From Patescibacteria group bacterium (GTDB taxonomy: Bacteria; Patescibacteriota; Minisyncoccia; UBA6257; HR35), in contig JAUQQN010000001.1 in NCBI GenBank assembly GCA_030549845.1, positions 234,838 to 298,837 on the forward strand: a DNA stretch of 64,000 bases, read 5' to 3'. The position numbers and the translations under genes were made by a program. The notes beneath the pieces are model-generated. The model was not told the DNA's origin and ran no database searches. It was given only the letters and a program-made list of their open reading frames with translations. This document shows positions 1 through 39,963 of the stretch, one piece after another. The first letter of the stretch is position 1. Every line of letters begins with the position of its first letter.

Positions 1-1112
1 TTACTAAGAGATGAATCTATTGAGAATGTATCTAAATTAGCTTTTGCATTTTTTATAAATTTTTCTCTTATTTCTTTATTTTTTAAAATAATTAAAATCT
101 TTTCCGACATAATTTGTGAATTGCCAACTGGCACTAAAAATCCATTATATCCATCTTTAATTATTTCTCTCGGTCCAAAATCACAATCAGTAGCGATAAC
201 TGGTAAATCACAAGCAATTGCTTCTATTAAAACAATCGGCATACCTTCATGAAAACTACTTAAAACAAAAACGTCTGAATTTTTCATATATTTATACGGA
301 TTATTTTTATGACCTAATAAAAAGACATTTGATTCCAAACATAATTCTTTGATTTCTGCCTCTATCTTTAACCTATCAGGACCTTCACCTACAATTACTA
401 AATAAGCATCAAGATTTTTAATCACAAGAGAAAATGCTTTTAGTAAGGTTATGATATCTTTTTGGTGTAAATCTAATCTATTTACAGCTAAAATTATTGG
501 CTTTAATTTATTTTTAAAAATTTCTTCATCAATTTCTTCATTACTTAAAAATTTAATTTTTTCTATATCTATGAAGTTATAGACAAAAGTTGCTTTTTCA
601 TTTTTTAAATTAAATAAGTTTTTTATATCTTGTGAAACACCTTCGCTAGCAGTAACTATTTTATCTACATTTTTAAAAGATATTTTGGTTAGAAATTTCA
701 CAATAAAATTTTGCTTATTAAATAAATATCTTGTATTACCTTGCTCAATAAAAATTATTTTACTTTTTGGCGAAAATATTTTACTTATATAGTAAAAATT
801 AGCATTTGAATGAGGACCGCCTCCAAAACAAATTATTAAATCTGGATTTATTTGAAAAATTCTTATTCCGAATAAAATAAAAAGTTTAAAGTAAAAAATT
901 AAGTTTCTTGGAAAAAAATAAGGAAAAATTTTAATGCTTTCTTCCAAACCTTTTTTAAAATCCTTAATAGATTCTTTTTTTATTTTTGTATCAATAGTTA
1001 AAAGATAAATATCATATTCTTTACTTAAAAAGTTCATTAAAGCTAAAACTATTTTCTTTCTACCACCCAAATCTCCCAACCAATTATCGCCTATAAAAAG
1101 AATCTTTTTCAT
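1..1112 (-). CDS. Glycosyltransferase family 4 (GT-B fold, RfaB-like); 3' end runs off the window
   Basis: My translation from the ATG at 1110-1112 (minus strand) stays open to position 1: MKKILFIGDNWLGDLGGRK...LLGHKNNPYKYMKNSDVFVLSSFHEGMPIVLIEAIACDLPVIATDCDFGPREIIKDGYNGFLVP. The EX7E motif is typical of retaining GT4 enzymes. It is missing from the ORF track because no stop codon falls inside the window. Confidence 0.75.
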   Translation of the reverse strand, partial: MKKILFIGDNWLGDLGGRKKIVLALMNFLSKEYDIYLLTIDTKIKKESIKDFKKGLEESIKIFPYFFPRNLIFYFKLFILFGIRIFQINPDLIICFGGGPHSNANFYYISKIFSPKSKIIFIEQGNTRYLFNKQNFIVKFLTKISFKNVDKIVTASEGVSQDIKNLFNLKNEKATFVYNFIDIEKIKFLSNEEIDEEIFKNKLKPIILAVNRLDLHQKDIITLLKAFSLVIKNLDAYLVIVGEGPDRLKIEAEIKELCLESNVFLLGHKNNPYKYMKNSDVFVLSSFHEGMPIVLIEAIACDLPVIATDCDFGPREIIKDGYNGFLVPVGNSQIMSEKILIILKNKEIREKFIKNAKANLDTFSIDSSLS

Positions 1113-1123
1113 TTCATAAAAAT

Positions 1124-2062
1124 TTAAAAAGAGATGTCGAACATTCGTTTTTTAAGTTTAAGTAAAAAGCTGTAAATGTTTTTCCCTAAAAAGGAAAGTA
1201 AAAAATTTCTGTATATGAAAAAATCCATCGGATAAACTTTAATGGCTTTTAAAAAATAAATCCTTGCTTTTGAAGAATCGCCACAGACCATATATAGAGT
1301 ACCAATAGTCTTCAATCTATGAGAATAACTTTGAGGGTATTTTTTAAAAAAATTTTCATGTTTTTTGATCAAGTATAAATTTTCAGAAACTTGATTTTCG
1401 TAAGGAAACTGACTAATAGATATATTTCCACCATGAATATAGTACTTTAATAAAATTGATGGCACAAAATCTACATTATAATATTGAAGTATTCGAATCC
1501 ATAAATCTTGATCTGCCATCCTTCTTAAATTTTTATCTATAAGTCCTATTTTATTAAAAATTTCTCTCCTAATTAAAAGAGCACTTAAAGTAGTAGGAAG
1601 TCTTCCTTTTAAAACATTTTCAATTAAATTTTCTTTTAGAGCAGAAAATTTAAATTCTTTTTTAAAATTTGTATTTTCTTTAATTATTAAAATATCACAA
1701 CCTACCATCCCAAGATTTGTACTATTTGATTTGTTAAATATATTTATTTGTTCTTCTAATTTTAGTGGCAACCATTCGTCATCAGAATCTAAAAAAGCTA
1801 TAAATTCACCTCTTACGACAGATAAACCCTTGTTTAGTGCTGAGGGCCAACCTTGATTTTCTTGGTAGACATAGACTATTCTAGAATCTTTTTGTTGAAA
1901 ATCTTCAACAATTTCCTTGGTATTATCAGTAGAACCATCATCTACAATAATTAGTTCAAAATCTTTATAAGTTTGATTAAGAACAGAATTTATTGCCCGT
2001 GGAAGAAGATCTGCTCTATTATAAGTTGTAATAATTACTGAAACAGTTGGGATTTTATTCAT
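1124..2062 (-). CDS. Glycosyltransferase family 2
   Basis: The ORF-track protein has the classic GT2 N-terminus PTVSVIITTYNRADLLPRAINSVLNQTYKDFELIIVDDGSTDNT. The likely start is the internal MNKIPTVSV at 2062; the ORF is open back to 2122. Confidence 0.8.
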   Translation of the reverse strand: MNKIPTVSVIITTYNRADLLPRAINSVLNQTYKDFELIIVDDGSTDNTKEIVEDFQQKDSRIVYVYQENQGWPSALNKGLSVVRGEFIAFLDSDDEWLPLKLEEQINIFNKSNSTNLGMVGCDILIIKENTNFKKEFKFSALKENLIENVLKGRLPTTLSALLIRREIFNKIGLIDKNLRRMADQDLWIRILQYYNVDFVPSILLKYYIHGGNISISQFPYENQVSENLYLIKKHENFFKKYPQSYSHRLKTIGTLYMVCGDSSKARIYFLKAIKVYPMDFFIYRNFLLSFLGKNIYSFLLKLKKRMFDISF

Positions 2063-2096
2063 GTTGTTTAAATTCGCTAAATATATTTTATACCAT

Positions 2097-3122
2097 TTAA
2101 AATAACTCTGACCAAGTTGCAATTGCTTTTTTTAATTTTTTGAAATAATTTATCTTTATGTTTAATTTTTCAGCAATTTCTCGATAACAAGTTTTAAAAT
2201 CGCTTTTAGTCAATTTTATCTCATTTATATATTTCCACAAATATTCATTAATTTTTATCCCTTTTCTCTCTTTTTCTAAATTTTTATAAGGATCACTTGC
2301 TCGATCATGCCAAATAACCGGATAGCCTGAAGTAATTCTATAACCCAGATGATCACAAATTTTTTTTACGAAAATTCCTGCCCAAATATCATCAAATCTA
2401 TCAACCCCCCAAGATTTTTCATTTTTATCTTTGCCCATTAACATAAAATACATTGCTGGGGTTAATTCTCGTTTCCAAGCTAGATTCATACCACACATTG
2501 GAAAATATTTTCCTACAGGAATAATTTGTTGAATAAAATAATTTTCAATTTTGGGGAATTTTTTAAATTTTAATTGAGTAATAGCATCGAAATCTGGAAT
2601 ATTGGCCCATAAACCATGATTTAAAATAATTTTATTTGAATCAATAATATCTTCCACCTGTTTATAAGGTAATCCTCTTGGCCTAATATTACCTTTTAAT
2701 CTGATAGTTGAAACCCATTTTATTTCCTGATATGAATTCTTAAACAATGCATCATAATGAGATTTAATAAAATTATTCTTATTAAAGTTTTTAATATAAT
2801 TCTCTAATGGGTAACAATCATCGTCTAGAGCTATTATCATATCACTTTTCATCTGATATGCTTTCCAAAAACCATAACTTTTAATTGCTGAAGTTCTTCT
2901 TGGAATAATCCAACTATCTTTCCCTAAATCTTTTTCTATATCCTCCCAACTGTAATGAAAGATTGGAAATTTTAAATTCTTATTTATTTCAAAAGATTTT
3001 ATAGGATTATCTTCAATAATAATTAAATTAATTTTATATTTATCAAAAACTTCTTCCCATTCACCAATAAATCTTCTTATAGAATTTTCTCTTATTGTTG
3101 GTACAACCACTGAAATTTTCAT
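2097..3122 (-). CDS. RGP/GT75-family protein, homolog of reversibly glycosylated polypeptide / UDP-arabinopyranose mutase
   Basis: Blocks collinear with plant RGP1: VVVPTIRE (cf. DIVIPTIRN), ALDDDCYP (cf. IDDDCFV), [16 protein letters not shown] (cf. HGLWLNIPDYDAPTQL), [25 protein letters not shown] (cf. [26 protein letters not shown]), [19 protein letters not shown] (cf. RYDDMWAGWCIKVICDHLG), [20 protein letters not shown] (cf. [20 protein letters not shown]). Confidence 0.75.
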   Translation of the reverse strand: [341 protein letters not shown]

Positions 3123-3143
3123 CTTTAAAATTATTATTTAAGC

Positions 3144-3626
3144 TTATAAAAATAATAAACCTATACCATAATTAAACTTATCAAAAATTATCTCGTTAAT
3201 TCTGTAGCGATTTTTAAGTACTGACCAAAATTTAGGCACTTCAATATCTTTCCTTAAAGGGTCTTTATTTATAATATCATGAAAAGCAATAATTCCTCCT
3301 TTTCTAACTAAAGGACTATACATTTCGAAATCTTTTTTAACTCCTTCATAAGTATGATCACCATCAATAAAAAGAAAATCTAATTGATTACCGCTTAAAA
3401 TATTTTTAACTTCTTCTAGGGTTTCTTGGTTATGAGAGTCTTTTCTTAAAAGAAGAAGATTTATTCTATTAATAGGCCGCTTCGTAGCTTTAATCAAAAA
3501 AATTTTCAAACCATAATTTTTAAGAACAAAAATTGATTTTTTAATTAATCTTAACATCTTGAGGTTTACGTAAATATTCTTAAACCAATAACTCCAATTT
3601 TTTCTTTCATTATTAAATTTTATCAT
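3144..3626 (-). CDS. Class I SAM-dependent methyltransferase-like protein (TylF/MycF, Methyltransf_24-like), possibly degenerate at the N-terminus
   Basis: C-terminal LDFLFIDGDHTYEGVKKDFEMYSPLVRKGGIIAFHDI matches the metal-binding FIDGDH...GG(I/V)IxFHD signature of macrocin/cephalosporin-type O-methyltransferases. No clear glycine-rich SAM loop. Confidence 0.5.
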   Translation of the reverse strand: MIKFNNERKNWSYWFKNIYVNLKMLRLIKKSIFVLKNYGLKIFLIKATKRPINRINLLLLRKDSHNQETLEEVKNILSGNQLDFLFIDGDHTYEGVKKDFEMYSPLVRKGGIIAFHDIINKDPLRKDIEVPKFWSVLKNRYRINEIIFDKFNYGIGLLFL

Positions 3627-3755
3627 AGAAAAATATTGGAGTTTAGCCTTTAAAATAAATAAAAATCTATTCCTATTTTAAGGATTTCCCATCTATCCAT
3701 TGAACAATACTATTGTAATATTCTTAATAATATTGGAGTACTAACGCAAAAATAT

Positions 3756-3781
3756 TTTCTATATTTCTATAGAAAAATAGA
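3756..3781. promoter_or_regulatory. Copy A of a conserved 26-bp imperfect palindrome TTCTAWATTTCTATAGAAAAWTAGAA (perfect core TTTCTATAGAAA at 3763-3774)
   Basis: The same element occurs three times in the window (also at 6723-6748 and 7119-7144). All three sit in intergenic DNA upstream of minus-strand gene starts. Confidence 0.6.
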
Positions 3782-4022
3782 ATTAGGTATATCATTTTTT
3801 TATTTTTTCAATTCCTTAAGAAAAACAAAGGGTTAACTTATAGCCGAAAATTAATTAAGAATTTAAGTCTGAATTCAGGAGAATATTTCTTTAAATATTT
3901 TTTTATTTTTGTTATCAATCTTATTTTTAATTAAAGACAAAACTACCATATATACTTTAATATAAGAATGGTTAATTTAAAAATCTAATTCTCTTTTGTT
4001 AATTTATTAAAAAGCTAAAAAT

Positions 4023-4967
4023 TTATTCTAAGTTTTCTTTGAACCATTCAACTGTAATTTTTAAGCCTTCATCTAAAGATACTTTTGGTATCCAACCTAA
4101 TTCTTTTTTGGCCTTAGAATAATCTAAGCAACTTCTTCTTTGTTCTCCAGGTTTTCTAGGTCCATGAATTTTTTTACAATTTGAACCAGTTAATTGTTTT
4201 AACTTTAGAAAAATTGTATTAATTGTTGTTTCTTTACCAGTCCCAATATTATAAACTCCGATCTTATTCTTCTTTATTGCTAAAATAAAAGCATTAACAA
4301 CATCATCAACATAAACAAAATCTCTAGTTTGTTTTCCATTACCATTAATTATTGGTTGGTCACCTCGAAGCATTTTATCACAAAAAATAGCAATAACGCC
4401 AGCTTCCCCTTTTGAGTTTTGTCTTGGCCCATAAACATTAGCTAACCTTAAAGCAATGTAAGGGATTTTAAAAACTTGAAAATAATAATTTAAATATTTT
4501 TCTACAGTCAATTTCTCAATTCCATAAGGGGAAAGAGGAAATTCAGGATAGCTTTCTGGAGTAGGAATAATTTTAACATCTCCATAAATAGCTCCACCAG
4601 TTGAAGCAAAAACAATTTTTGTGATTTTATTGTAATTTTTATAATGATATAATTTAGCGAAACTTTCAATAATATTTAATGAACCTAAAATATTTATTTC
4701 AGCGCTTTTAATAGGATTTTCAACTGATTTTCTAACATCAATTTGGGCTGCAAGATGATAAATTATGTCTGGTTTTTCTTTCTTAAATATTTCAAAAATT
4801 TTAGATGAGCAAATATCAATTTTATAAAATCTTGCTTTTTTATTTAAATTTTCTTTTTTACCTGACGAAAGGTTATCTATAATAATTACTTTGTGCTTTT
4901 CCTTAATTAGTCTATCAACTAAATGCGAACCTATAAATCCTGCTCCACCTGTGACTAAAATTCTCAT
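4023..4967 (-). CDS. NAD-dependent epimerase/dehydratase (UDP-sugar 4-epimerase-like, GalE family)
   Basis: MRILVTGGAGFIGSHLVDRL Rossmann motif at the N-terminus, and YxxxK in ...YGIEKLTVEKYLNYY. Typical extended SDR. Confidence 0.85.
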   Translation of the reverse strand: MRILVTGGAGFIGSHLVDRLIKEKHKVIIIDNLSSGKKENLNKKARFYKIDICSSKIFEIFKKEKPDIIYHLAAQIDVRKSVENPIKSAEINILGSLNIIESFAKLYHYKNYNKITKIVFASTGGAIYGDVKIIPTPESYPEFPLSPYGIEKLTVEKYLNYYFQVFKIPYIALRLANVYGPRQNSKGEAGVIAIFCDKMLRGDQPIINGNGKQTRDFVYVDDVVNAFILAIKKNKIGVYNIGTGKETTINTIFLKLKQLTGSNCKKIHGPRKPGEQRRSCLDYSKAKKELGWIPKVSLDEGLKITVEWFKENLE

Positions 4968-5956
4968 TTTTGTAAAAGTTTAATCCACTTATTTTTAAAT
5001 TTTAATGCTTTTTTAAAAGAAAGTTCAATACCTGTTTTTAAATCTATTTTTGGCTCATAGCCTAAAATATTTTTAATTTTTGATAAATCTGGTTTTCGAA
5101 ATTCAATATCAGTAAATATATCTCCTCTTTCTTTTGTTGGCAAGTAAATGACATCAATATCTTCATGTAAAATTTTTAATTTTTTAGCAATTTTAATCAT
5201 TAAATCTTTTAGCTCATTAATAGAATAGATTTCTTTGTCATTACCAATATTAAAAGTTTCTTTGCATTTATTTTTTATTAAATACTTTACCCCTAAAATA
5301 AATCCTTTAACTGTATCATCAATATAACAAAAAGCTCGTTTTTGATTCCCGTGTCCAAAAATTGTGATAGGTTTTTTAAAAATAATTGAATATAAAAAAC
5401 TTGCAAAAACACGCGATGGTTTTTTTAAATCTACACCGAACCCATATGTATTAAATATTCTAAAAATAATAAAGGGTAAATTTGAAAGTCGTATAACATT
5501 TTCTTCTAAACATTTAACATGGGCATAATTCCACCTATTAGAAAATTCAAATACAAAAAAATCATCTTCTTTAAAACTTTTCTTCTTAAATATCCCTAAC
5601 AAACCGTAAACATCAGAGCTTGATGAAAAAATTATAGGTTTATTATATTTCTGAGCAATCTTGGTTAAAATTAAGGTATTTTTCAAATTCTGAATAACTT
5701 TTTTAAAATTTTTTATTGTTATATCAACTCCAACTATGCTTGCAAGATGAATAATTAAATCTACATTTTTGACTATATTTTCTAAAATATCCTTATTTAT
5801 TTCTGAACGATATATTTTAATATTTGAATTCTTTTCCAATAATAAACCAGTTCCAGAAGAAAAATCATCTAGAATAAAAACAAAATTATTTTGAGATAAT
5901 GCATTTGATAGATAACTTCCTATAAATCCTGCCCCTCCGGTTATAAGAATTTTCAT
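4964..5956 (-). CDS. NAD-dependent epimerase/dehydratase family protein
   Basis: MKILITGGAGFIGSYLSNAL Rossmann motif. The likely start is the internal MKIL at 5956; the ORF is open back to 5998. It overlaps the upstream epimerase stop by 4 nt (operon). Confidence 0.75.
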   Translation of the reverse strand: MKILITGGAGFIGSYLSNALSQNNFVFILDDFSSGTGLLLEKNSNIKIYRSEINKDILENIVKNVDLIIHLASIVGVDITIKNFKKVIQNLKNTLILTKIAQKYNKPIIFSSSSDVYGLLGIFKKKSFKEDDFFVFEFSNRWNYAHVKCLEENVIRLSNLPFIIFRIFNTYGFGVDLKKPSRVFASFLYSIIFKKPITIFGHGNQKRAFCYIDDTVKGFILGVKYLIKNKCKETFNIGNDKEIYSINELKDLMIKIAKKLKILHEDIDVIYLPTKERGDIFTDIEFRKPDLSKIKNILGYEPKIDLKTGIELSFKKALKFKNKWIKLLQK

Positions 5957-5986
5957 ATTGATAAATTTTAACTTAAAATTTTTAAA

Positions 5987-6131: not shown

Positions 6132-6653
6132 TCAAATATTTCTATTAATTTCTATTGAATGTTCATTTAGTAATTGAATAATTCGTTTTATTAAGGAATC
6201 TTCATTTGGGAAATCTAAGTATTGAATTTCATCTTTATAAAATGTGCTTAATGCTAATATATGGTAAACAAGACATTGAGAATAAATATTAGGGAATTTT
6301 TCCCTTAAGTTATTAAATTCTTTACTAAATTTCTCAGTTAATTCAGGGCTTTTTTCTAAAATTCCATAAATTTTTGTTTTAAAATTCATTAATTCTTCAA
6401 CAAACCTTTCGTATAACTCATCTTCTTTAAGCTTTTGAATTTTCTTTTTTTCATTTCCTATTATTTGTTCATTATCTTTTAAATTAAACTCTAAAATAAC
6501 TAACAAAAGATTTCTTATATCTTCTTCGCTAATAAGGTTTTCCTTGATCAATCTCTTTACAACACTTTTTATTCCTTCCTTATTTGATGAGTTTATTAGT
6601 TTTTTGTTTTCTGGATGTTTTTTCATTGCCTTAATTATAGCAAAATATAACAA
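6132..6653 (-). CDS. Hypothetical protein
   Basis: 173-aa ORF from the track with no recognisable motif. Palindrome copy B lies about 80 bp upstream. Confidence 0.45.
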   Translation of the reverse strand: MLYFAIIKAMKKHPENKKLINSSNKEGIKSVVKRLIKENLISEEDIRNLLLVILEFNLKDNEQIIGNEKKKIQKLKEDELYERFVEELMNFKTKIYGILEKSPELTEKFSKEFNNLREKFPNIYSQCLVYHILALSTFYKDEIQYLDFPNEDSLIKRIIQLLNEHSIEINRNI

Positions 6654-6786: not shown

Positions 6787-7074
6787 TTATTGGTTCTTAA
6801 AAAGTCCTTTATAAAATTCTTCAACTTGGGATAAAACTCTTAAACCTAGCTTTGTTATTTTATAATTAACAATTAAGCCCTCTCTTTTTCTAGAGATCAA
6901 TTGGGCCTTAACTAATCTTTCTAAATGAGGAATTACTGTTTTATAATTTTTCTCCAAAAAATCAGCTATACTTCCTGTATCTCTTTCACCTGAATTTTTA
7001 AGATAAATTAAAATTTTTAATCTAGTTTTATTCCCTAATGCTTTAAATAATGATTCCAATCTTTGCAAGTCCAT
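6787..7074 (-). CDS. ArsR/SmtB-family winged-helix transcriptional regulator
   Basis: LFKALGNKTRLKILIYLKNSGERDTGSIADFLEKNYKTVIPHLERLVKAQLI is a typical ArsR HTH; 95 aa. Confidence 0.75.
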   Translation of the reverse strand: MDLQRLESLFKALGNKTRLKILIYLKNSGERDTGSIADFLEKNYKTVIPHLERLVKAQLISRKREGLIVNYKITKLGLRVLSQVEEFYKGLFKNQ

Positions 7075-12321: not shown

Positions 12322-12627
12322 TCACTTAGAAAGGAATTTGTAAATCTCATAAAATAAACTAGCTAAAAAACTTTTTATTTTTATCCAAATTTCAATTATA
12401 TTTATCCCAAAAATGTTTTCGATTGTTTGTGGTATTTGAGAAAGGTCTATACCTAACGTATCTTTTAAAAATAAATTAAATTTTATCCAACCAAGTTTTA
12501 ATGTATTTAAAAAAATATCTATATTAAAGTAAGGTTTTAACCAATTCCAAAAATTTTGTGGTAGAGCTGCAAATATCAATAAAACTATGATGACTAAAGC
12601 AATTAATCTAACTAATCTGAATATCAT
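12322..12627 (-). CDS. Hypothetical small membrane protein
   Basis: 101-aa ORF with a hydrophobic N-terminus, immediately downstream of gltX. No homology evidence. Confidence 0.35.
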   Translation of the reverse strand: MIFRLVRLIALVIIVLLIFAALPQNFWNWLKPYFNIDIFLNTLKLGWIKFNLFLKDTLGIDLSQIPQTIENIFGINIIEIWIKIKSFLASLFYEIYKFLSK

Positions 12628-14044
12628 TTAATTTATCTATTGCTTTATTTATTAATTCTAGGCTTTTTTCTTTCCCATAAATTAACATAATATCTATCGG
12701 AGGAGGAGATGCTTCTAAGCCTGTTAAGGCTACTCTTAATGGCCAATATGTTAAACCCTTGTCTTCGCTTAAGGTATCTAAAACCTGCTTGATAAATTCA
12801 TAATTAAATTTATCCTCAGGAATATTCTTTATATTTTCTCTAACATTTATTAAAGAACTTTTTATTTGATCAAAAGTATAATCTTTCCATATTAATAGCT
12901 CTTTTGGATAATCAAATTTTTCATATAAAAACTTCATGGTTTCGAAAATTTCTTTTATAGTATTTGCTCTTTCTTTCCCAAGTTCTATTATTTTATAAGT
13001 AATTTCTTTTGGGTATTTATTTAAGTAATCTCTTAAATATTTTAGATACTCATCAGCTAAAATGATTTTTTCAATTTCTTGTGAGGTTTTTTTCCTCAAA
13101 TAAAATTTATTTAACCAAATTAATTTTTTTGAATTAAATACTGCCGATCTTTTTTCAACGTCTTCCAAGTTAAATTCTTTGATAACCTCTTCTATACTTA
13201 TAATTTCTTTCTCTCTTTTAGGATGCCAACCTAATAATACCAAAAAATTTAAGATTGCTTCTGGTAAAAAACCTTCAGCTCTATATTCTTTTATACTCTT
13301 AGCCCCGTGTCTTTTCGAAAGCTTACCTCCTGCTTCACCTAAAATCAGTGGAATATGAGCATAAATAGGTGGTTTCCAATTCATGGCTTTATAAATTAAT
13401 ATTTGTTTAGGGGTATTTGGTATATGTTCAGCGCCTCTTATTACATGGGTGATTCCTTGATAATAATCATCTACAGGGGTAGCTAAATGAAATAATGGTT
13501 CATTTTCTGATTTTGCAATTACAAAATCGCCTATTAATCTTAAATCATATTTAATTTCACCTCGCAATAAATCTTTAAATGTTAAAACTTGTTCTGGCAC
13601 CTTTAGTCTTATTACATAAGGCACATTTCTTGAAAGTTTCTCATTTATTTCTTCTTTTGTTAGCTTGGAGCATGTTCCATCGTATCTTGGTGGTTCGCCT
13701 TTTGTGATTTGCTCAAGTCTTTTGTTCTCTAGTTCTTCTTTTGAACAAAAACACCTATACGCCTTTCCTTTATTTAATAATTCTTCAATAACTCTTTTAT
13801 AAATTTCTATTCTCTCTGACTGAAATATAGGACCTTCGTCATAATTTATACCTAACCATTGTAGGCTTTCGATTATATCATCAACAAATTCTTTTTTTGA
13901 CCTCTCTCTGTCTGTATCTTCTATTCTTAAAATGAAAACTCCTTTTTGGTTTTTAGCAAAAAGAAAATTAAACAGAGCAGTTCTTGCAGATCCCAAATGT
14001 AGATATCCTGTAGGAGAAGGAGCAAATCTTGTTCTTACAACCAT
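12608..14044 (-). CDS. gltX: Glutamyl-tRNA synthetase
   Basis: RFAPSPTGYLHLGSARTALFN (HIGH region) and KLSKRHG (KMSKS) class I motifs. Confidence 0.9.
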   Translation of the reverse strand: MVVRTRFAPSPTGYLHLGSARTALFNFLFAKNQKGVFILRIEDTDRERSKKEFVDDIIESLQWLGINYDEGPIFQSERIEIYKRVIEELLNKGKAYRCFCSKEELENKRLEQITKGEPPRYDGTCSKLTKEEINEKLSRNVPYVIRLKVPEQVLTFKDLLRGEIKYDLRLIGDFVIAKSENEPLFHLATPVDDYYQGITHVIRGAEHIPNTPKQILIYKAMNWKPPIYAHIPLILGEAGGKLSKRHGAKSIKEYRAEGFLPEAILNFLVLLGWHPKREKEIISIEEVIKEFNLEDVEKRSAVFNSKKLIWLNKFYLRKKTSQEIEKIILADEYLKYLRDYLNKYPKEITYKIIELGKERANTIKEIFETMKFLYEKFDYPKELLIWKDYTFDQIKSSLINVRENIKNIPEDKFNYEFIKQVLDTLSEDKGLTYWPLRVALTGLEASPPPIDIMLIYGKEKSLELINKAIDKLNDIQIS

Positions 14045-19241: not shown

Positions 19242-19296
19242 TTTACTAAAGTAGTTATGATAATTAAAAAAGTACAGTTTTCTGCACCTCAGCAAG

Positions 19297-22221
<2,925 letters not shown>

Positions 22222-22421
22222 TTGCTGAGGTACAGAAAACTGTACTTTTCATCAATTACTTTCTTTGTAAATTTAATATAAGGGTGCTATATCCACTTTT
22301 ATTTCTCTAGCTTCTTTGGCTATATTTAGAATAAAAATAAAAGAAAAAATTCAATAACCCTCAAATCTTATCTTTCTTACTAAAATTAATTATATATTAA
22401 ATGTTGATAAATTTCAAGCAA

Positions 22422-37214: not shown

Positions 37215-37389
37215 CCATACTTTCAAGTTTTTTTATCTCTTCAAAATTTGGTCTTTTGTCTATCCTTAAGTAGATATTTTTGTTTTTATGATCAACCTTG
37301 ATATAAATCTTGTAGTGAGGTGGTATTTCTTTTTTTAAATTTTCTACCAATTCTAAAAGTTTTGATTTTCTAATTTCAATACGCTCCAT
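37168..37389 (-). CDS. Hypothetical small protein translationally coupled to dnaN
   Basis: 73-aa ORF whose ATG overlaps the dnaN stop. No motif recognised. Confidence 0.4.
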   Translation of the reverse strand: MERIEIRKSKLLELVENLKKEIPPHYKIYIKVDHKNKNIYLRIDKRPNFEEIKKLESMVKVFFEGYSVKILVD

Positions 37390-38516
37390 TAAATTGGCAT
37401 TAATATATAAATAAAATCTTCTTCTAGGGGTGATTTCAAAAGAATAGGTTTTATTCCATATTCTGATGGTAAATTAATACCAACAAAAACTTTCTCACTA
37501 TCTATATTTTTAATACCTTCATACAAAAAATCAATATTAAAAGACATTTCTACTTTTTCTTCGTTATCTAATTTTTCCAAATCTATTCCTATAGTATTTT
37601 TTGTTTCACCAAGTAAATCATTTTTTGAATAAAATTCTATTGTTTTTTCCTTGGTATTAATAGTTACCTTTAGTTCTTTTGATTGATCTGTGTATACTTT
37701 ATTCAATTTCAAAGCCTTTAAACTTTCATCTCTGTTTATATAGAAGATAATATTGAAATCTTTGGGGATAACTTGTTGATAATCTGGATAATCTATAGTT
37801 AATAATTTTGTTAATAAAACCTGATCATCTAAATCAAAGGTAATTTGAGCTTTCTCTATATAAATTCTTAATTTTAATGGTTTCTTCTTTATTTTTAAAT
37901 ACTCAGTAATTATTCTTTCTGGAATCAAGATTTTTTCTTCTTGGATATTAGTAATAACTAAATCTTTTTTAAATTTAACCTCAGATAATCTTATAGTATC
38001 AGTAGTTACAAGCTTGACATAATTATTATCAATCACCATATAAACCCCAGCAAATTCTGGTTTTATTATATTTGCAGTTTTTATATTCCCATAAATTTTT
38101 TCTAAATAACCTTCAAAAAGTCTATTTTCTATTTCTAAATAAATATCCTCATTGTAATCAGGTATTAATGGATACTCTTCTTCTGAAACACCTGGTAGAT
38201 TTGAAATACTTGATTTACTTTTAATCAATAAATTATTTTCTGTGCTTTCTAAAGTTATATCTTCTTCAAAAAAATTTTGAAGAACTTCATAAAATTGTTT
38301 TGCTGGTATTAAAACCACTCCTTCTTCAATTATTTTTTTAGGTAAAACAGAGGCTTTATATGAAATTTCTAAATCAGTTGCAAATATATTTAATTTTTCT
38401 CCTTTTGCTTCTAATTTAAAAAAATTCAAAACACTTAAATCAGTCTTTTTTGGACAAATTCTATTAACTACTGTTATTTTATCTAGTAATGATGTTTTTG
38501 ATATATTTACTTTCAT
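37389..38516 (-). CDS. dnaN: DNA polymerase III beta subunit (sliding clamp)
   Basis: MKVNISKTSLLDKITVVNRIC... Three-domain length and position directly downstream of dnaA. Confidence 0.85.
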   Translation of the reverse strand: MKVNISKTSLLDKITVVNRICPKKTDLSVLNFFKLEAKGEKLNIFATDLEISYKASVLPKKIIEEGVVLIPAKQFYEVLQNFFEEDITLESTENNLLIKSKSSISNLPGVSEEEYPLIPDYNEDIYLEIENRLFEGYLEKIYGNIKTANIIKPEFAGVYMVIDNNYVKLVTTDTIRLSEVKFKKDLVITNIQEEKILIPERIITEYLKIKKKPLKLRIYIEKAQITFDLDDQVLLTKLLTIDYPDYQQVIPKDFNIIFYINRDESLKALKLNKVYTDQSKELKVTINTKEKTIEFYSKNDLLGETKNTIGIDLEKLDNEEKVEMSFNIDFLYEGIKNIDSEKVFVGINLPSEYGIKPILLKSPLEEDFIYILMPI

Positions 38517-38613: not shown

Positions 38614-39963
38614 TTATTCATTTAAAATCCTGTTCTTTAAAACTTCTATTTCTTGAAATAAATCGAAGCTTTCTTGAATTTCTTTTTCAATTTTTTCGCA
38701 AGAATATAAAACTGTTGTATGGTCTCTTTTGTTTAATAATTCACCTATTGAATTATAAGATAATTTCCCTATTTCTCTTAATAAATACATTGCAACTTGT
38801 CTTGGTTTAATGAGTTCCTTTTTCCTTATTTTTTTAGTTAAATCTTCTTCTTTTATATTGTAAAATTCAGCTACTATTTTGAGAATTTTTTTAGGTGAAA
38901 TAGTTTTTATATTATGCCTTTGATATTCTTTAATAAGAGTTTCAATTTTTTCTGGTGTAGCATCCTTTAAAGACCTTAATTTAAAAGCGGTATAATTTAA
39001 AGCTCCTTCTAGCTCTCTTATATTTTTTGTAATTTTTTGAGCAATTATTTCTAAAATATAATCCGGTAAATAATAAGCCCTTTCTTGGTTTTTAAGTCTT
39101 AAAATAGCAAATCTTGTTTCAAAATCAGGAGGTGTAATATCTATTACTAAACCACCTTCAAATCTAGATTGTAGTCTTTCTTCAATATCAGGTATCATTT
39201 TAGGAGGTCTATCTGATGAAAAAACTATTTGTTTTCTTGCATTATATAACTCATTAAATGTATGAAAAAGCTCTTCTTGTGATTTGGTTTTACCTGAAAG
39301 AAAATGGACATCATCTAAAATTAGAACATCAACTTCTCTAAACTTCTGCCTAAATTCTTCTATATTTTGGTTTTTTAATGTATTTATAAGCTCATTAGTA
39401 AATTGTTCTGTTGTAGCATACCTCACTTTTTTAGTTGTGCTGTATTTTTTGACAATTTCATTCCCAATTGCTTGTAAAAGATGTGTTTTACCTAAACCAA
39501 CTCCACCCCAAATAAAAAGAGGATTAAATTTTTCACCCAAATTATTTACTACACCTTGCGCAGCTGCAAACGCTAACTCATTATTACTTCCTACTACAAA
39601 ATTTTCAAAAGTATATTTTGGATTAAGGTTAGTAGAAGGGCTTACCTCAAAAATTGTTATTTTTTGACTAAAAAGATATTTTCTAATTCTTGTCTTTTTA
39701 ACTTCATTGCTGCTTATTATGTATTCTATTGATTTAAGTTCTTTAAAAACTTCTTTAGCTGTTTTTAATAAAATTACATGGAATTTATTTTCTAACCAAT
39801 TTTTCACTAGTTTATTAGGAACTTCTAGTTGTAATATTCCGTTTAAAATCTGAAGAGGTACAACATTACTAAACCAAGTTTTAATTGTTGGTTTTGATAC
39901 TCTTTCTTCTAAAATTGTTATAATTTTTTGCCAACCAGTATTTAAATCAAGTTTATCTTCCAT
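38614..39963 (-). CDS. dnaA: Chromosomal replication initiator protein DnaA
   Basis: AAA+ Walker A GGVGLGKTHLLQAIGNE, Walker B VLILDDVHFL, and a C-terminal DNA-binding helix region. Confidence 0.9.
   Translation of the reverse strand: MEDKLDLNTGWQKIITILEERVSKPTIKTWFSNVVPLQILNGILQLEVPNKLVKNWLENKFHVILLKTAKEVFKELKSIEYIISSNEVKKTRIRKYLFSQKITIFEVSPSTNLNPKYTFENFVVGSNNELAFAAAQGVVNNLGEKFNPLFIWGGVGLGKTHLLQAIGNEIVKKYSTTKKVRYATTEQFTNELINTLKNQNIEEFRQKFREVDVLILDDVHFLSGKTKSQEELFHTFNELYNARKQIVFSSDRPPKMIPDIEERLQSRFEGGLVIDITPPDFETRFAILRLKNQERAYYLPDYILEIIAQKITKNIRELEGALNYTAFKLRSLKDATPEKIETLIKEYQRHNIKTISPKKILKIVAEFYNIKEEDLTKKIRKKELIKPRQVAMYLLREIGKLSYNSIGELLNKRDHTTVLYSCEKIEKEIQESFDLFQEIEVLKNRILNE

Follow-up and report, generated by a model that had tools for sequence, protein, structure and literature searches.

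The first ~6 kb of a 64-kb stretch of Patescibacteria DNA (contig JAUQQN010000001.1; "the window" denotes this whole 64-kb stretch) hold a glycan gene cluster of ~25% G+C. Its open reading frame (ORF) 2097-3122 encodes a full-length protein of family GT75, to which the plant reversibly glycosylated polypeptides (RGPs) and uridine diphosphate (UDP)-arabinopyranose mutases (UAMs) belong. The protein retains the catalytic residues of characterised family members, and its relatives in many phyla lie, as it does, among genes for glycan assembly. By analogy with the characterised enzymes, it is likely an active pyranose-furanose mutase, dependent on Mn2+ but not on flavin, that operates via an adduct between R149 and the sugar and that feeds the GT2 glycosyltransferase encoded downstream.

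Family membership and fold

A first-pass annotation of this DNA had described a plant-type RGP homologue accompanied by GT4, GT2 and methyltransferase-like genes and by two genes for short-chain dehydrogenases/reductases (SDRs). All of these genes are indeed present on the minus strand (Table 1), as are the RGP sequence blocks: DDDC at D100-C103, PMCGMNLAW at 208-216, RFDDIWAG..KKICDHLG at 242-260 and VIWHDRASDP at 269-278. Profile searches substantiate the family assignment. PF03214 scores 156.2 bits against the protein (gathering score 23.8), matching residues 3-340 to positions 6-336 of the 342-position profile, and is its sole Pfam match at E<=0.01, while no NCBIfam model matches it.

Only two prokaryotic GT75 enzymes have been characterised, MtdL from Marinactinospora thermotolerans (A201A pathway) and Hyg20 from Streptomyces hygroscopicus, both of which are mutases of guanosine diphosphate (GDP)-L-galactose and GDP-L-fucose (PMC9937993, PMC6861824). 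On the plant side, we compared class-1 UAMs from Raphanus, Hibiscus, Miscanthus, Physcomitrium, Chlamydomonas and Coccomyxa; a plant RGP query served as bait only, and the comparisons use the database sequences that it retrieved (P0121 and others). Class-1 UAMs are 37-38% identical to the window protein when the full alignment is counted and 39% identical when only 223 core columns are; the corresponding figures are 25% and 24% for the non-catalytic class-2 protein in PDB entry 8cid and 26% and 28% for MtdL. Sequence searches of the PDB find rice UAM2 (8cid; E=1.5e-19) and MtdL (E=2e-17) and no other close relatives. The former, which the Foldseek result identifies as OsUAM2, a class-2 plant protein, is the closest solved plant structure by sequence. 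An AlphaFold model computed from 29 homologues is of high predicted quality (predicted local distance difference test score 92.2, predicted template modelling score 0.91). Its nearest Foldseek neighbours are MtdL, at a template modelling (TM) score of 0.76-0.77 (E=3e-21 at TM 0.76), and rice UAM2, at TM 0.74, and the next matches are generic GT-A folds at TM <=0.43. The model thus conforms to the GT75 architecture, in which a Rossmann-like GT-A region at the N-terminus is joined to a family-specific core and to helices at the C-terminus. Neither Pfam nor the structural neighbours reveal homology to the UDP-galactopyranose mutase (UGM) Glf or a flavin-binding domain in the protein.

Catalytic and sugar-site residues

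Residue equivalences were taken from MtdL structures and from mutagenesis of MtdL and AtRGP2 (PMC9937993). Every mapped catalytic residue is kept in the window protein: the DxD motif (MtdL D109-D111; D100-D102 here), the nucleophilic, autoglycosylated arginine (MtdL R159, OsUAM1 R158; R149), the helper aspartate (MtdL D195, AtRGP2 D182; D177), the beta-phosphate arginine (MtdL R257; R242), the aspartate proposed as general base (MtdL D260, AtRGP2 D246; D245), the histidine ligand of Mn2+ (MtdL H287; H272) and the diphosphate contact in loop A (MtdL R289; R274). Conservation of the DxD motif and of the catalytic arginine, the two sites to which the first-pass annotation had pointed, is thus borne out. 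A scan of one genome per species returned a relative in 170 of 185,579 species genomes, and in the 79 distinct loci among the best 80 matches of these genomes D100-D102, R149, D177, R242, D245 and H272, the counterparts of all residues that proved indispensable in mutagenesis of MtdL or AtRGP2 (PMC9937993), are invariant, and R274 is likewise conserved. The DDD motif is also invariant in the 29 homologues behind the structural model; in MtdL its third aspartate binds Mn2+, and the motif is essential in OsUAM1. R149 lies in an RPRGLPY segment that aligns with plant VRGYPF and with FPRGFPF of MtdL, and it too never varies. The window protein further keeps the equivalents of MtdL R257 and H287, both of which are lost in the inactive AtRGP5 and OsUAM2, and it does not carry the class-2 change from DDD to DDN.

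As judged from the alignment, the sugar site resembles that of plant class-1 enzymes rather than that of MtdL. In the plant comparison P8, D38, C103, G211 and M212 are all kept. S78 occupies the position of AtRGP2 S91, where MtdL has D87, and the S91D exchange abolishes formation of UDP-galactofuranose (UDP-Galf) by AtRGP2 (PMC9937993). G211 and M212, the former at the position of AtRGP2 G216, match the plant Gly-Met pair (motif PMCGMNLAF), whereas MtdL has S228-Q229; C103 completes a plant-type DDDC motif, which reads DDDN in MtdL. At the three positions that govern base selectivity (MtdL T13, N42 and S86; Pro, Asp and Asp in plants), the window protein has P8, N39 and T77. P8 thus corresponds to the plant proline, and a T13P exchange weakens GDP binding by MtdL 28-fold (PMC9937993). 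Position 78 is occupied by Asp in 46 of the 79 loci, by Ser in 20, by Ala in 12 and by Gly in one, and this variation suggests that the family comprises more than one substrate specificity. The residue at this position (D, S or A) shows no association with an adjacent SDR across the loci.

Genomic context across the family

After ORF calling in the 79 loci, the four ORFs nearest to GT75 on either side were clustered; a Pfam scan covered 277 neighbouring ORFs in ~70 loci. The commonest neighbour of GT75 is a GT2 gene (56 ORFs in 33 of the 79 loci), mostly at position +1 or +2 and on the same strand, just as in the window. The other Pfam families encountered include GT1/GT4, Wzy_C polymerase/ligase-like proteins, WecG/TagA, DegT aminotransferases, Wzx, Wzz, Bac_transf and methyltransferases. 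The GT75 loci are thus loci for the assembly of surface glycans. Nineteen of them encode extended SDRs of non-equivalog type, in five cases directly upstream of GT75, and no Glf family recurs among the 277 neighbours. Such neighbourhoods support a nucleotide-sugar-modifying enzyme that feeds a glycosyltransferase, without identifying the sugar.

Several arrangements stand out. A recurrent module of Patescibacteria type (L047, L057, L059, L061, L068, L074 and L079) runs in the order GT2, DUF4330 protein, Wzy_C membrane protein, GT1-like protein (~384-400 aa), GT75 and several GT2 genes. In four other loci (L071 and L076-L078) GT75 adjoins dnaA-dnaN, followed by a 670-aa Wzy_C protein. A Paceibacterota locus (L004; 8860-9732, minus strand) has two GT75 genes, which are convergent, 3 kb apart and part of the same glycan cluster and whose products share 73% and 51% identity with that of the window. 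A single glycan may therefore draw on two different furanose donors.

Possible origin of the nucleotide sugar and alternative readings

Both SDR genes upstream of GT75 had been taken for UDP-sugar 4-epimerase-like genes in the first pass, a description that fits only one of them. The product of SDR gene 4023-4967 has the motifs GxxGxxG, STGG and YxxxK (YGIEK), has a solved UDP-glucose 4-epimerase as its PDB match (Table 1) and reaches 177.9 bits with the galE model TIGR01179 (cut-off 262.3). It is predicted to be a 4-epimerase of GalE type, for which activity on UDP-xylose (UDP-Xyl) cannot be read from sequence; a literature search returned nothing useful on function for PDB 8VR2 and 4ZRM. The product of 4964-5956 is closest to UDP-glucuronate decarboxylases. 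Its best NCBIfam match, PRK11908 (bifunctional UDP-4-keto-pentose/UDP-xylose synthase), has a cut-off of 294 bits (score in Table 1), ArnA and GalE models follow at 94.9 and 83 bits, likewise below their cut-offs, and human UXS1 is its match in the PDB (E=8e-27). Four close relatives share 68-99% identity with it before identity drops to ~40%; a member of the nearest larger family (P0245), at that ~40%, scores 178 bits to human UXS1. It keeps YxxxK (YAHVK) and R-x-PD, and it reads SSS-SDVYG where UXS has ST-SEVYG. This replacement of the UXS T-S-E by S-S-D is constant in the small subclade (P0242 and P0243; 68-78% identity) and may point to a change in chemistry, such as the release of a 4-keto intermediate. 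The protein is therefore placed, from sequence comparison, in the UXS/ArnA clade as a possible UDP-xylose or UDP-4-keto-pentose synthase. The start of the GalE-type gene overlaps the stop of the UXS-like gene by 4 nt, and the pair recurs on contigs L080, L086 and L085 (99/98%, 78/77% and 68/45% identity for the UXS-like and GalE-like proteins).

A coherent scheme can be drawn from these parts. The UXS-clade SDR would convert UDP-glucuronic acid (UDP-GlcA) to UDP-Xyl, and the GalE-type SDR would convert UDP-Xyl to the pyranose form of UDP-L-arabinose (UDP-L-Arap) and/or UDP-glucose to UDP-galactose (UDP-Gal). In the GT75 protein, by analogy with MtdL and plant UAMs, D102 and H272 would hold the Mn2+ that bridges to the diphosphate, D245 would deprotonate R149, and R149 would attack C1 of the nucleoside diphosphate (NDP)-pyranose to give an arginine-sugar adduct. 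The ring would then open and reclose through O4, and renewed attack by the NDP would release the NDP-furanose without the participation of flavin. The furanose donor would pass to the GT2 enzyme, and the GT4 enzyme and transferases encoded past the window edge would follow in building a cell-surface glycan. The most likely substrate is a UDP-sugar of D-galacto/L-arabino configuration, given the plant-like pocket and the UDP-sugar chemistry of the neighbouring SDRs, which plausibly supply it. Within this class we tentatively favour conversion of UDP-L-Arap to its furanose form (UDP-L-Araf), because the genes for the UXS-like protein and the 4-epimerase are translationally coupled. The plant-like UDP-Araf route put forward in the first pass therefore survives as a hypothetical but coherent series (UDP-GlcA, UDP-Xyl, UDP-L-Arap, UDP-L-Araf), in which UDP-Galf competes with UDP-L-Araf as the product.

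A number of observations weigh against this scheme. The 64-kb window shows no UDP-glucose 6-dehydrogenase (UGDH) motif that would account for a supply of UDP-GlcA, and no UGDH or UXS signature recurs among the 277 neighbours. The UXS-like SDR is divergent, falls under every curated cut-off and has Asp in place of the catalytic Glu of UXS; in none of the 79 related loci does an orthologue of it adjoin GT75. A 396-bp gap parts the SDR pair from the mutase unit. In the closest relative, L001, at 89% protein identity, neither SDR is found within 8 kb, which makes the linkage between SDRs and mutase strain-specific. Finally, N39 and T77 are not the Asp residues of plants, and N39 adjoins an alignment gap; since only P8 of the three base-selectivity positions is plant-like, GDP-sugars keep some probability as substrates.

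It is possible, though in our estimate rather unlikely, that the protein is instead a flavin-independent UDP-galactopyranose (UDP-Galp) mutase, with GalE making UDP-Gal, GT75 making UDP-D-Galf, the GT2 enzyme acting as a galactofuranosyltransferase and the UXS-like SDR serving another sugar. D-Galf is far commoner than L-Araf as a bacterial surface sugar, and galactofuranosyltransferases of the GlfT type belong to GT2, like the downstream gene. Two considerations make UDP-Galf a serious rival: the adjacent epimerase is of GalE type, with 53% identity to a solved UDP-glucose 4-epimerase, and plant UAMs do convert UDP-D-Galp to UDP-D-Galf. OsUAM1 and AtRGP2 both catalyse this reaction, in which S91 and G216 matter, and both residues are kept here as S78 and G211 (PMC9937993). 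That no UGDH is seen in the window is also in line with a galactose route. However, plant UAMs are inefficient on galactose (PMC6861824), the genome may still hold a conventional glf, and the coupling of the epimerase to a UXS-clade SDR in a conserved pair is a better fit to epimerisation of UDP-Xyl to UDP-arabinose.

More remote from UDP-L-Arap is a GDP-sugar of the L-galacto series (GDP-L-fucose or GDP-L-galactose), or another NDP-sugar, as the substrate, with the upstream SDRs unrelated to the mutase. The characterised bacterial GT75 enzymes do use GDP-L-galactose and GDP-L-fucose (PMC9937993), N39 and T77 are MtdL-like or neutral rather than the plant Asp pair, the linkage between SDRs and mutase is not conserved across the family, and the variation at position 78 implies several specificities. 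We nevertheless regard this substrate as improbable: D87 and Q229, which are essential in MtdL, are S78 and M212 here, as in the plant UDP-sugar enzymes, P8 is the residue that impairs GDP binding when introduced into MtdL, and the window protein is nearer to plant UAMs than to MtdL over the core columns. Neither is there a GDP-mannose dehydratase, GDP-fucose synthase or GDP-mannose 3,5-epimerase equivalog in the locus, the NCBIfam models of these enzymes scoring far under GalE and UXS for both SDRs. Least probable of all, and very unlikely in our view, is that the protein is no mutase in vivo and serves as a self-glycosylating or scaffold protein like the class-2 RGPs, or as an arginine glycosyltransferase acting on another protein. 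GT75 proteins do autoglycosylate an arginine, class-2 AtRGP5 and OsUAM2 are devoid of mutase activity (PMC9937993), and the solved plant structure nearest in sequence belongs to class 2. Yet the class-2 marks are absent from the window protein, its identity to class 2 is well below that to class 1, the full catalytic set is invariant in the 79 loci from many phyla, and the ratio of nonsynonymous to synonymous substitution rates (dN/dS) between the GT75 genes of the window and of L001 is 0.17.

Distribution and phylogeny

The prokaryotic GT75 family is small but spans phyla. A word-indexed protein search returned 1,722 relatives (90% clusters, E<=1e-5), nearly all of them unnamed or labelled 'hypothetical protein', and when 1.84 billion 50% representatives were searched exhaustively with a profile, the relatives numbered 2,041, 1,230 and 581 at E<=1e-3, E<=1e-10 and E<=1e-30, respectively. 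The best 80 matches of the species-genome scan all come from metagenome-assembled genomes (MAGs). Many are Patescibacteria; the others include Planctomycetota, Acidobacteriota, Chloroflexota, Melioribacteraceae, Nitrospirota, Dormibacterota, a few bins that carry a Gammaproteobacteria label and a single archaeon, of the Thermoplasmata.

The phylogenetic placement suggested by the first-pass annotation was carried out by neighbour joining. The eukaryotic RGPs form a monophyletic group in every one of 200 bootstraps, and the prokaryotic family lies on the opposite side of the tree, a split recovered in only 53 of 200 replicates. The window protein falls in this separate prokaryotic family and not with the characterised UAMs. 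By this tree it would be a homologue, not an orthologue, of the eukaryotic UAMs: the relationship to plant RGPs stands, and eukaryotes form a clade of their own. Within GT75, the window gene belongs to a prokaryotic branch that is old and sparsely distributed. A recent transfer from a plant is ruled out by the 37-39% identity, the monophyly of the eukaryotic proteins and the breadth of the prokaryotic family.

Four cluster mates (P0361, P0362, P0370 and P0385), at least 90% identical to the window GT75, GalE-like or GltX (12608-14044) proteins, are assigned in the database to MAGs of 'Candidatus Aenigmatarchaeota' and 'Candidatus Pacearchaeota'. An archaeal origin of the window itself is ruled out, because it carries a bacterial 23S rRNA gene as well as dnaA (38614-39963) and dnaN (37389-38516). 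The archaeal bins probably hold mis-binned Patescibacteria contigs, and several low-GC loci labelled Gammaproteobacteria or Pseudomonadales look similarly suspect. The 23S rRNA gene, complete and bacterial, stands alone at 19286-22229 on the minus strand; with no match to 16S or 5S rRNA in the 64-kb window, the rRNA genes appear to be unlinked.

Layout and mosaic structure of the locus

In the direction of transcription, the UXS-clade SDR is followed by the GalE-type SDR, the intergenic gap, the methyltransferase-like ORF, GT75, GT2 and GT4 (Table 1). The GT2 gene begins 35 nt downstream of the GT75 gene; its ORF is open to 2122, with a likely ATG at 2062. The PDB matches of its product are all generic GT2 enzymes (e.g. 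chondroitin synthase and GalT1), so that the donor sugar cannot be read from sequence, and it is a candidate furanosyltransferase for the product of the mutase. The GT4 gene loses its C-terminus at the window edge, its start codon being taken from the sequence. The ORF of the UXS-clade SDR is open to 5998, and 330 aa are counted from the likely ATG.

Table 1. Features in the first ~6 kb of the window.
Feature	Coordinates	Strand	Supporting match or remark
GT4 glycosyltransferase	1-1112	-	PglJ-like best NCBIfam match, E=2.2e-47, under equivalog cut-off
GT2 glycosyltransferase	1124-2062	-	PF00535, E=5.9e-41
GT75/RGP protein, 341 aa	2097-3122	-	PF03214, E=1.7e-45
Methyltransferase-like ORF, 160 aa, internally deleted	3144-3626	-	C-terminal half of Methyltransf_24 only
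AT-rich non-coding gap, 396 bp	3627-4022		longest ORF 26 aa
Putative GalE-type UDP-sugar 4-epimerase, 314 aa	4023-4967	-	PDB 4zrm, E=2e-99, 53% identity
Extended SDR of the UXS/ArnA clade, 330 aa	4964-5956	-	PRK11908 best NCBIfam match, 124.8 bits

The methyltransferase-like gene reported in the first pass is present, but only as an internally deleted remnant. It covers positions 56-105 of the Methyltransf_24 profile and has lost the half with the S-adenosylmethionine-binding motif. Compared with homologues of 260-267 aa in L003, L004 and L009, ~366 bp (~122 aa) are missing in frame, which identifies it by alignment as an in-frame deletion derivative. L001 carries the same short form, and the window copy would measure 136 aa if it started at the Met used there. 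The two short copies differ by only ~15 substitutions, with a dN/dS of 0.09, so that the remnant, as far as so few changes can tell, is unlike a freely decaying pseudogene.

The gap that separates the SDR pair from the methyltransferase-GT75-GT2-GT4 unit contains no ORF of at least 30 aa and probably holds a promoter region; at 25% GC, scans of the locus for consensus promoters and terminators did no better than on shuffled sequence. Two minus-strand genes, at 6132-6626 and 6787-7074, lie directly upstream of the SDR pair, one for a regulator of the ArsR/HTH_5 family and one for a 164-aa protein without a Pfam match. Contigs L080-L084 and L087 preserve the order of regulator, 164-aa ORF and SDR pair, while L085 keeps only a helix-turn-helix regulator upstream of its SDR344 homologue. 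Both genes may belong to the SDR cassette.

Cassette mosaicism is usual in surface-polysaccharide loci, and the present locus conforms to it. Positions 2098-3631 of the window are 91% identical at the DNA level to 7500-9025 of L001, a Patescibacteria MAG, across the methyltransferase remnant and GT75, and the flanks are unrelated. Since L001 shares only this block, the glycan locus is a recombination mosaic of cassettes. The SDR-bearing Logan contigs L080-L087 end just past the GalE gene, and these contig breaks fit strain-level variability at that point.

Relation to known systems and significance

The window protein has most in common with the class-1 UAMs of plants and green algae (OsUAM1/3 and AtRGP1-3; EC 5.4.99.30). 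It matches the same Pfam family over its full length at the identity given above, and shares with them the DDDC, R-G-x-P, PMCGMNLA, R-[FY]-D-D-[IM]-W-AG and H-x-[RK]-AS-[ND]-P blocks, as well as Ser, Gly and Pro at the positions of AtRGP2 S91, AtRGP2 G216 and MtdL T13. The logic of the upstream UXS-like and 4-epimerase genes would also match the de novo route to UDP-arabinose in plants. In contrast to the plant enzymes, it has neither the plant N-terminal extension nor the first DGD motif (ED-N instead), has T77 for a plant Asp, belongs to a distinct prokaryotic clade and is encoded in a bacterial surface-glycan locus adjoining GT2 and GT4. With MtdL it shares the fold, the Mn2+ ligands, the catalytic Arg and Asp, the beta-phosphate Arg and a bacterial host, and the same flavin-independent mechanism is expected. 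Yet identity is only 26-28%, sequence searches align residues 72-318 only, and MtdL D87 and Q229 are replaced by Ser and Met. Moreover, MtdL and Hyg20 are encoded in actinomycete antibiotic clusters, whereas the window gene comes from a bacterium of the candidate phyla and lies in a locus for cell-envelope glycan.

Furanoses in bacterial envelopes are normally credited to the UGM/Glf flavoenzyme or to lipid-linked donors. Like the flavin adenine dinucleotide (FAD)-dependent Glf/UGM enzymes, the GT75 protein would perform an analogous ring contraction and supply GT2 furanosyltransferases in a bacterial glycan locus; unlike them, it would use an arginine guanidinium rather than flavin N5 as the nucleophile, and the two are not homologous. 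The locus also resembles that of Campylobacter jejuni HS:15, where UGDH, UXS, a UDP-Xyl 4-epimerase and a mutase dependent on reduced FAD (FADH2) lead to UDP-beta-L-arabinofuranose (PMC10615251); the succession of UXS, 4-epimerase and mutase has been established by experiment there, as it has in plants. Both are capsule or surface-glycan loci that encode a UXS-type decarboxylase, a 4-epimerase and a mutase, all three being candidates in the window, and the proposed product is the same. However, the C. jejuni mutase is a flavoenzyme of Glf/UGM type with a fold unrelated to GT75, and its cluster includes the UDP-glucose dehydrogenase that is not seen in the 64-kb window.

These comparisons temper the novelty that the first-pass annotation attached to the locus. 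The decaprenyl-phospho-arabinose route with which it had contrasted the locus makes D-Araf, not L-Araf; a bacterial UDP-L-Araf route, which it had called unusual, is already characterised in C. jejuni HS:15 (PMC10615251); and bacterial GT75 proteins are themselves known, CAZy having listed 9 bacterial and 43 archaeal GT75 entries in 2019, with an overall GT75 count of 308 in 2023, beside the characterised MtdL and Hyg20 (PMC6861824, PMC9937993). Novelty is weaker than claimed for these three reasons. What is new is an uncharacterised clade whose active site is of plant type and whose genes sit in loci for primary cell-envelope glycans, in phyla that are for the most part uncultivated.

Perhaps many uncultivated lineages (Patescibacteria, Planctomycetota, Acidobacteriota, Chloroflexota and others) make the UDP-furanoses of their surface glycans by plant-type, flavin-free GT75 enzymes, with UDP-L-Araf made here by a full UXS/4-epimerase/mutase route and with the family as the pool behind the plant UDP-Araf pathway, although this scenario in its entirety must be considered doubtful. 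The natural D/S/A variation at the position of AtRGP2 S91 and MtdL D87 offers a ready panel for studying sugar choice in GT75. If the clade is active, it would represent a second and mechanistically different route to furanoses, based on Mn2+ and an arginine nucleophile, in primary envelope biosynthesis, and one that spans many uncultivated phyla, the ultra-small Patescibacteria included. Activity would also provide the first functional assignment for a family that now consists almost entirely of hypothetical proteins, as well as robust bacterial enzymes with which to prepare UDP-L-Araf and UDP-Galf, and would bear on how the UDP-arabinofuranose pathway of plants arose.

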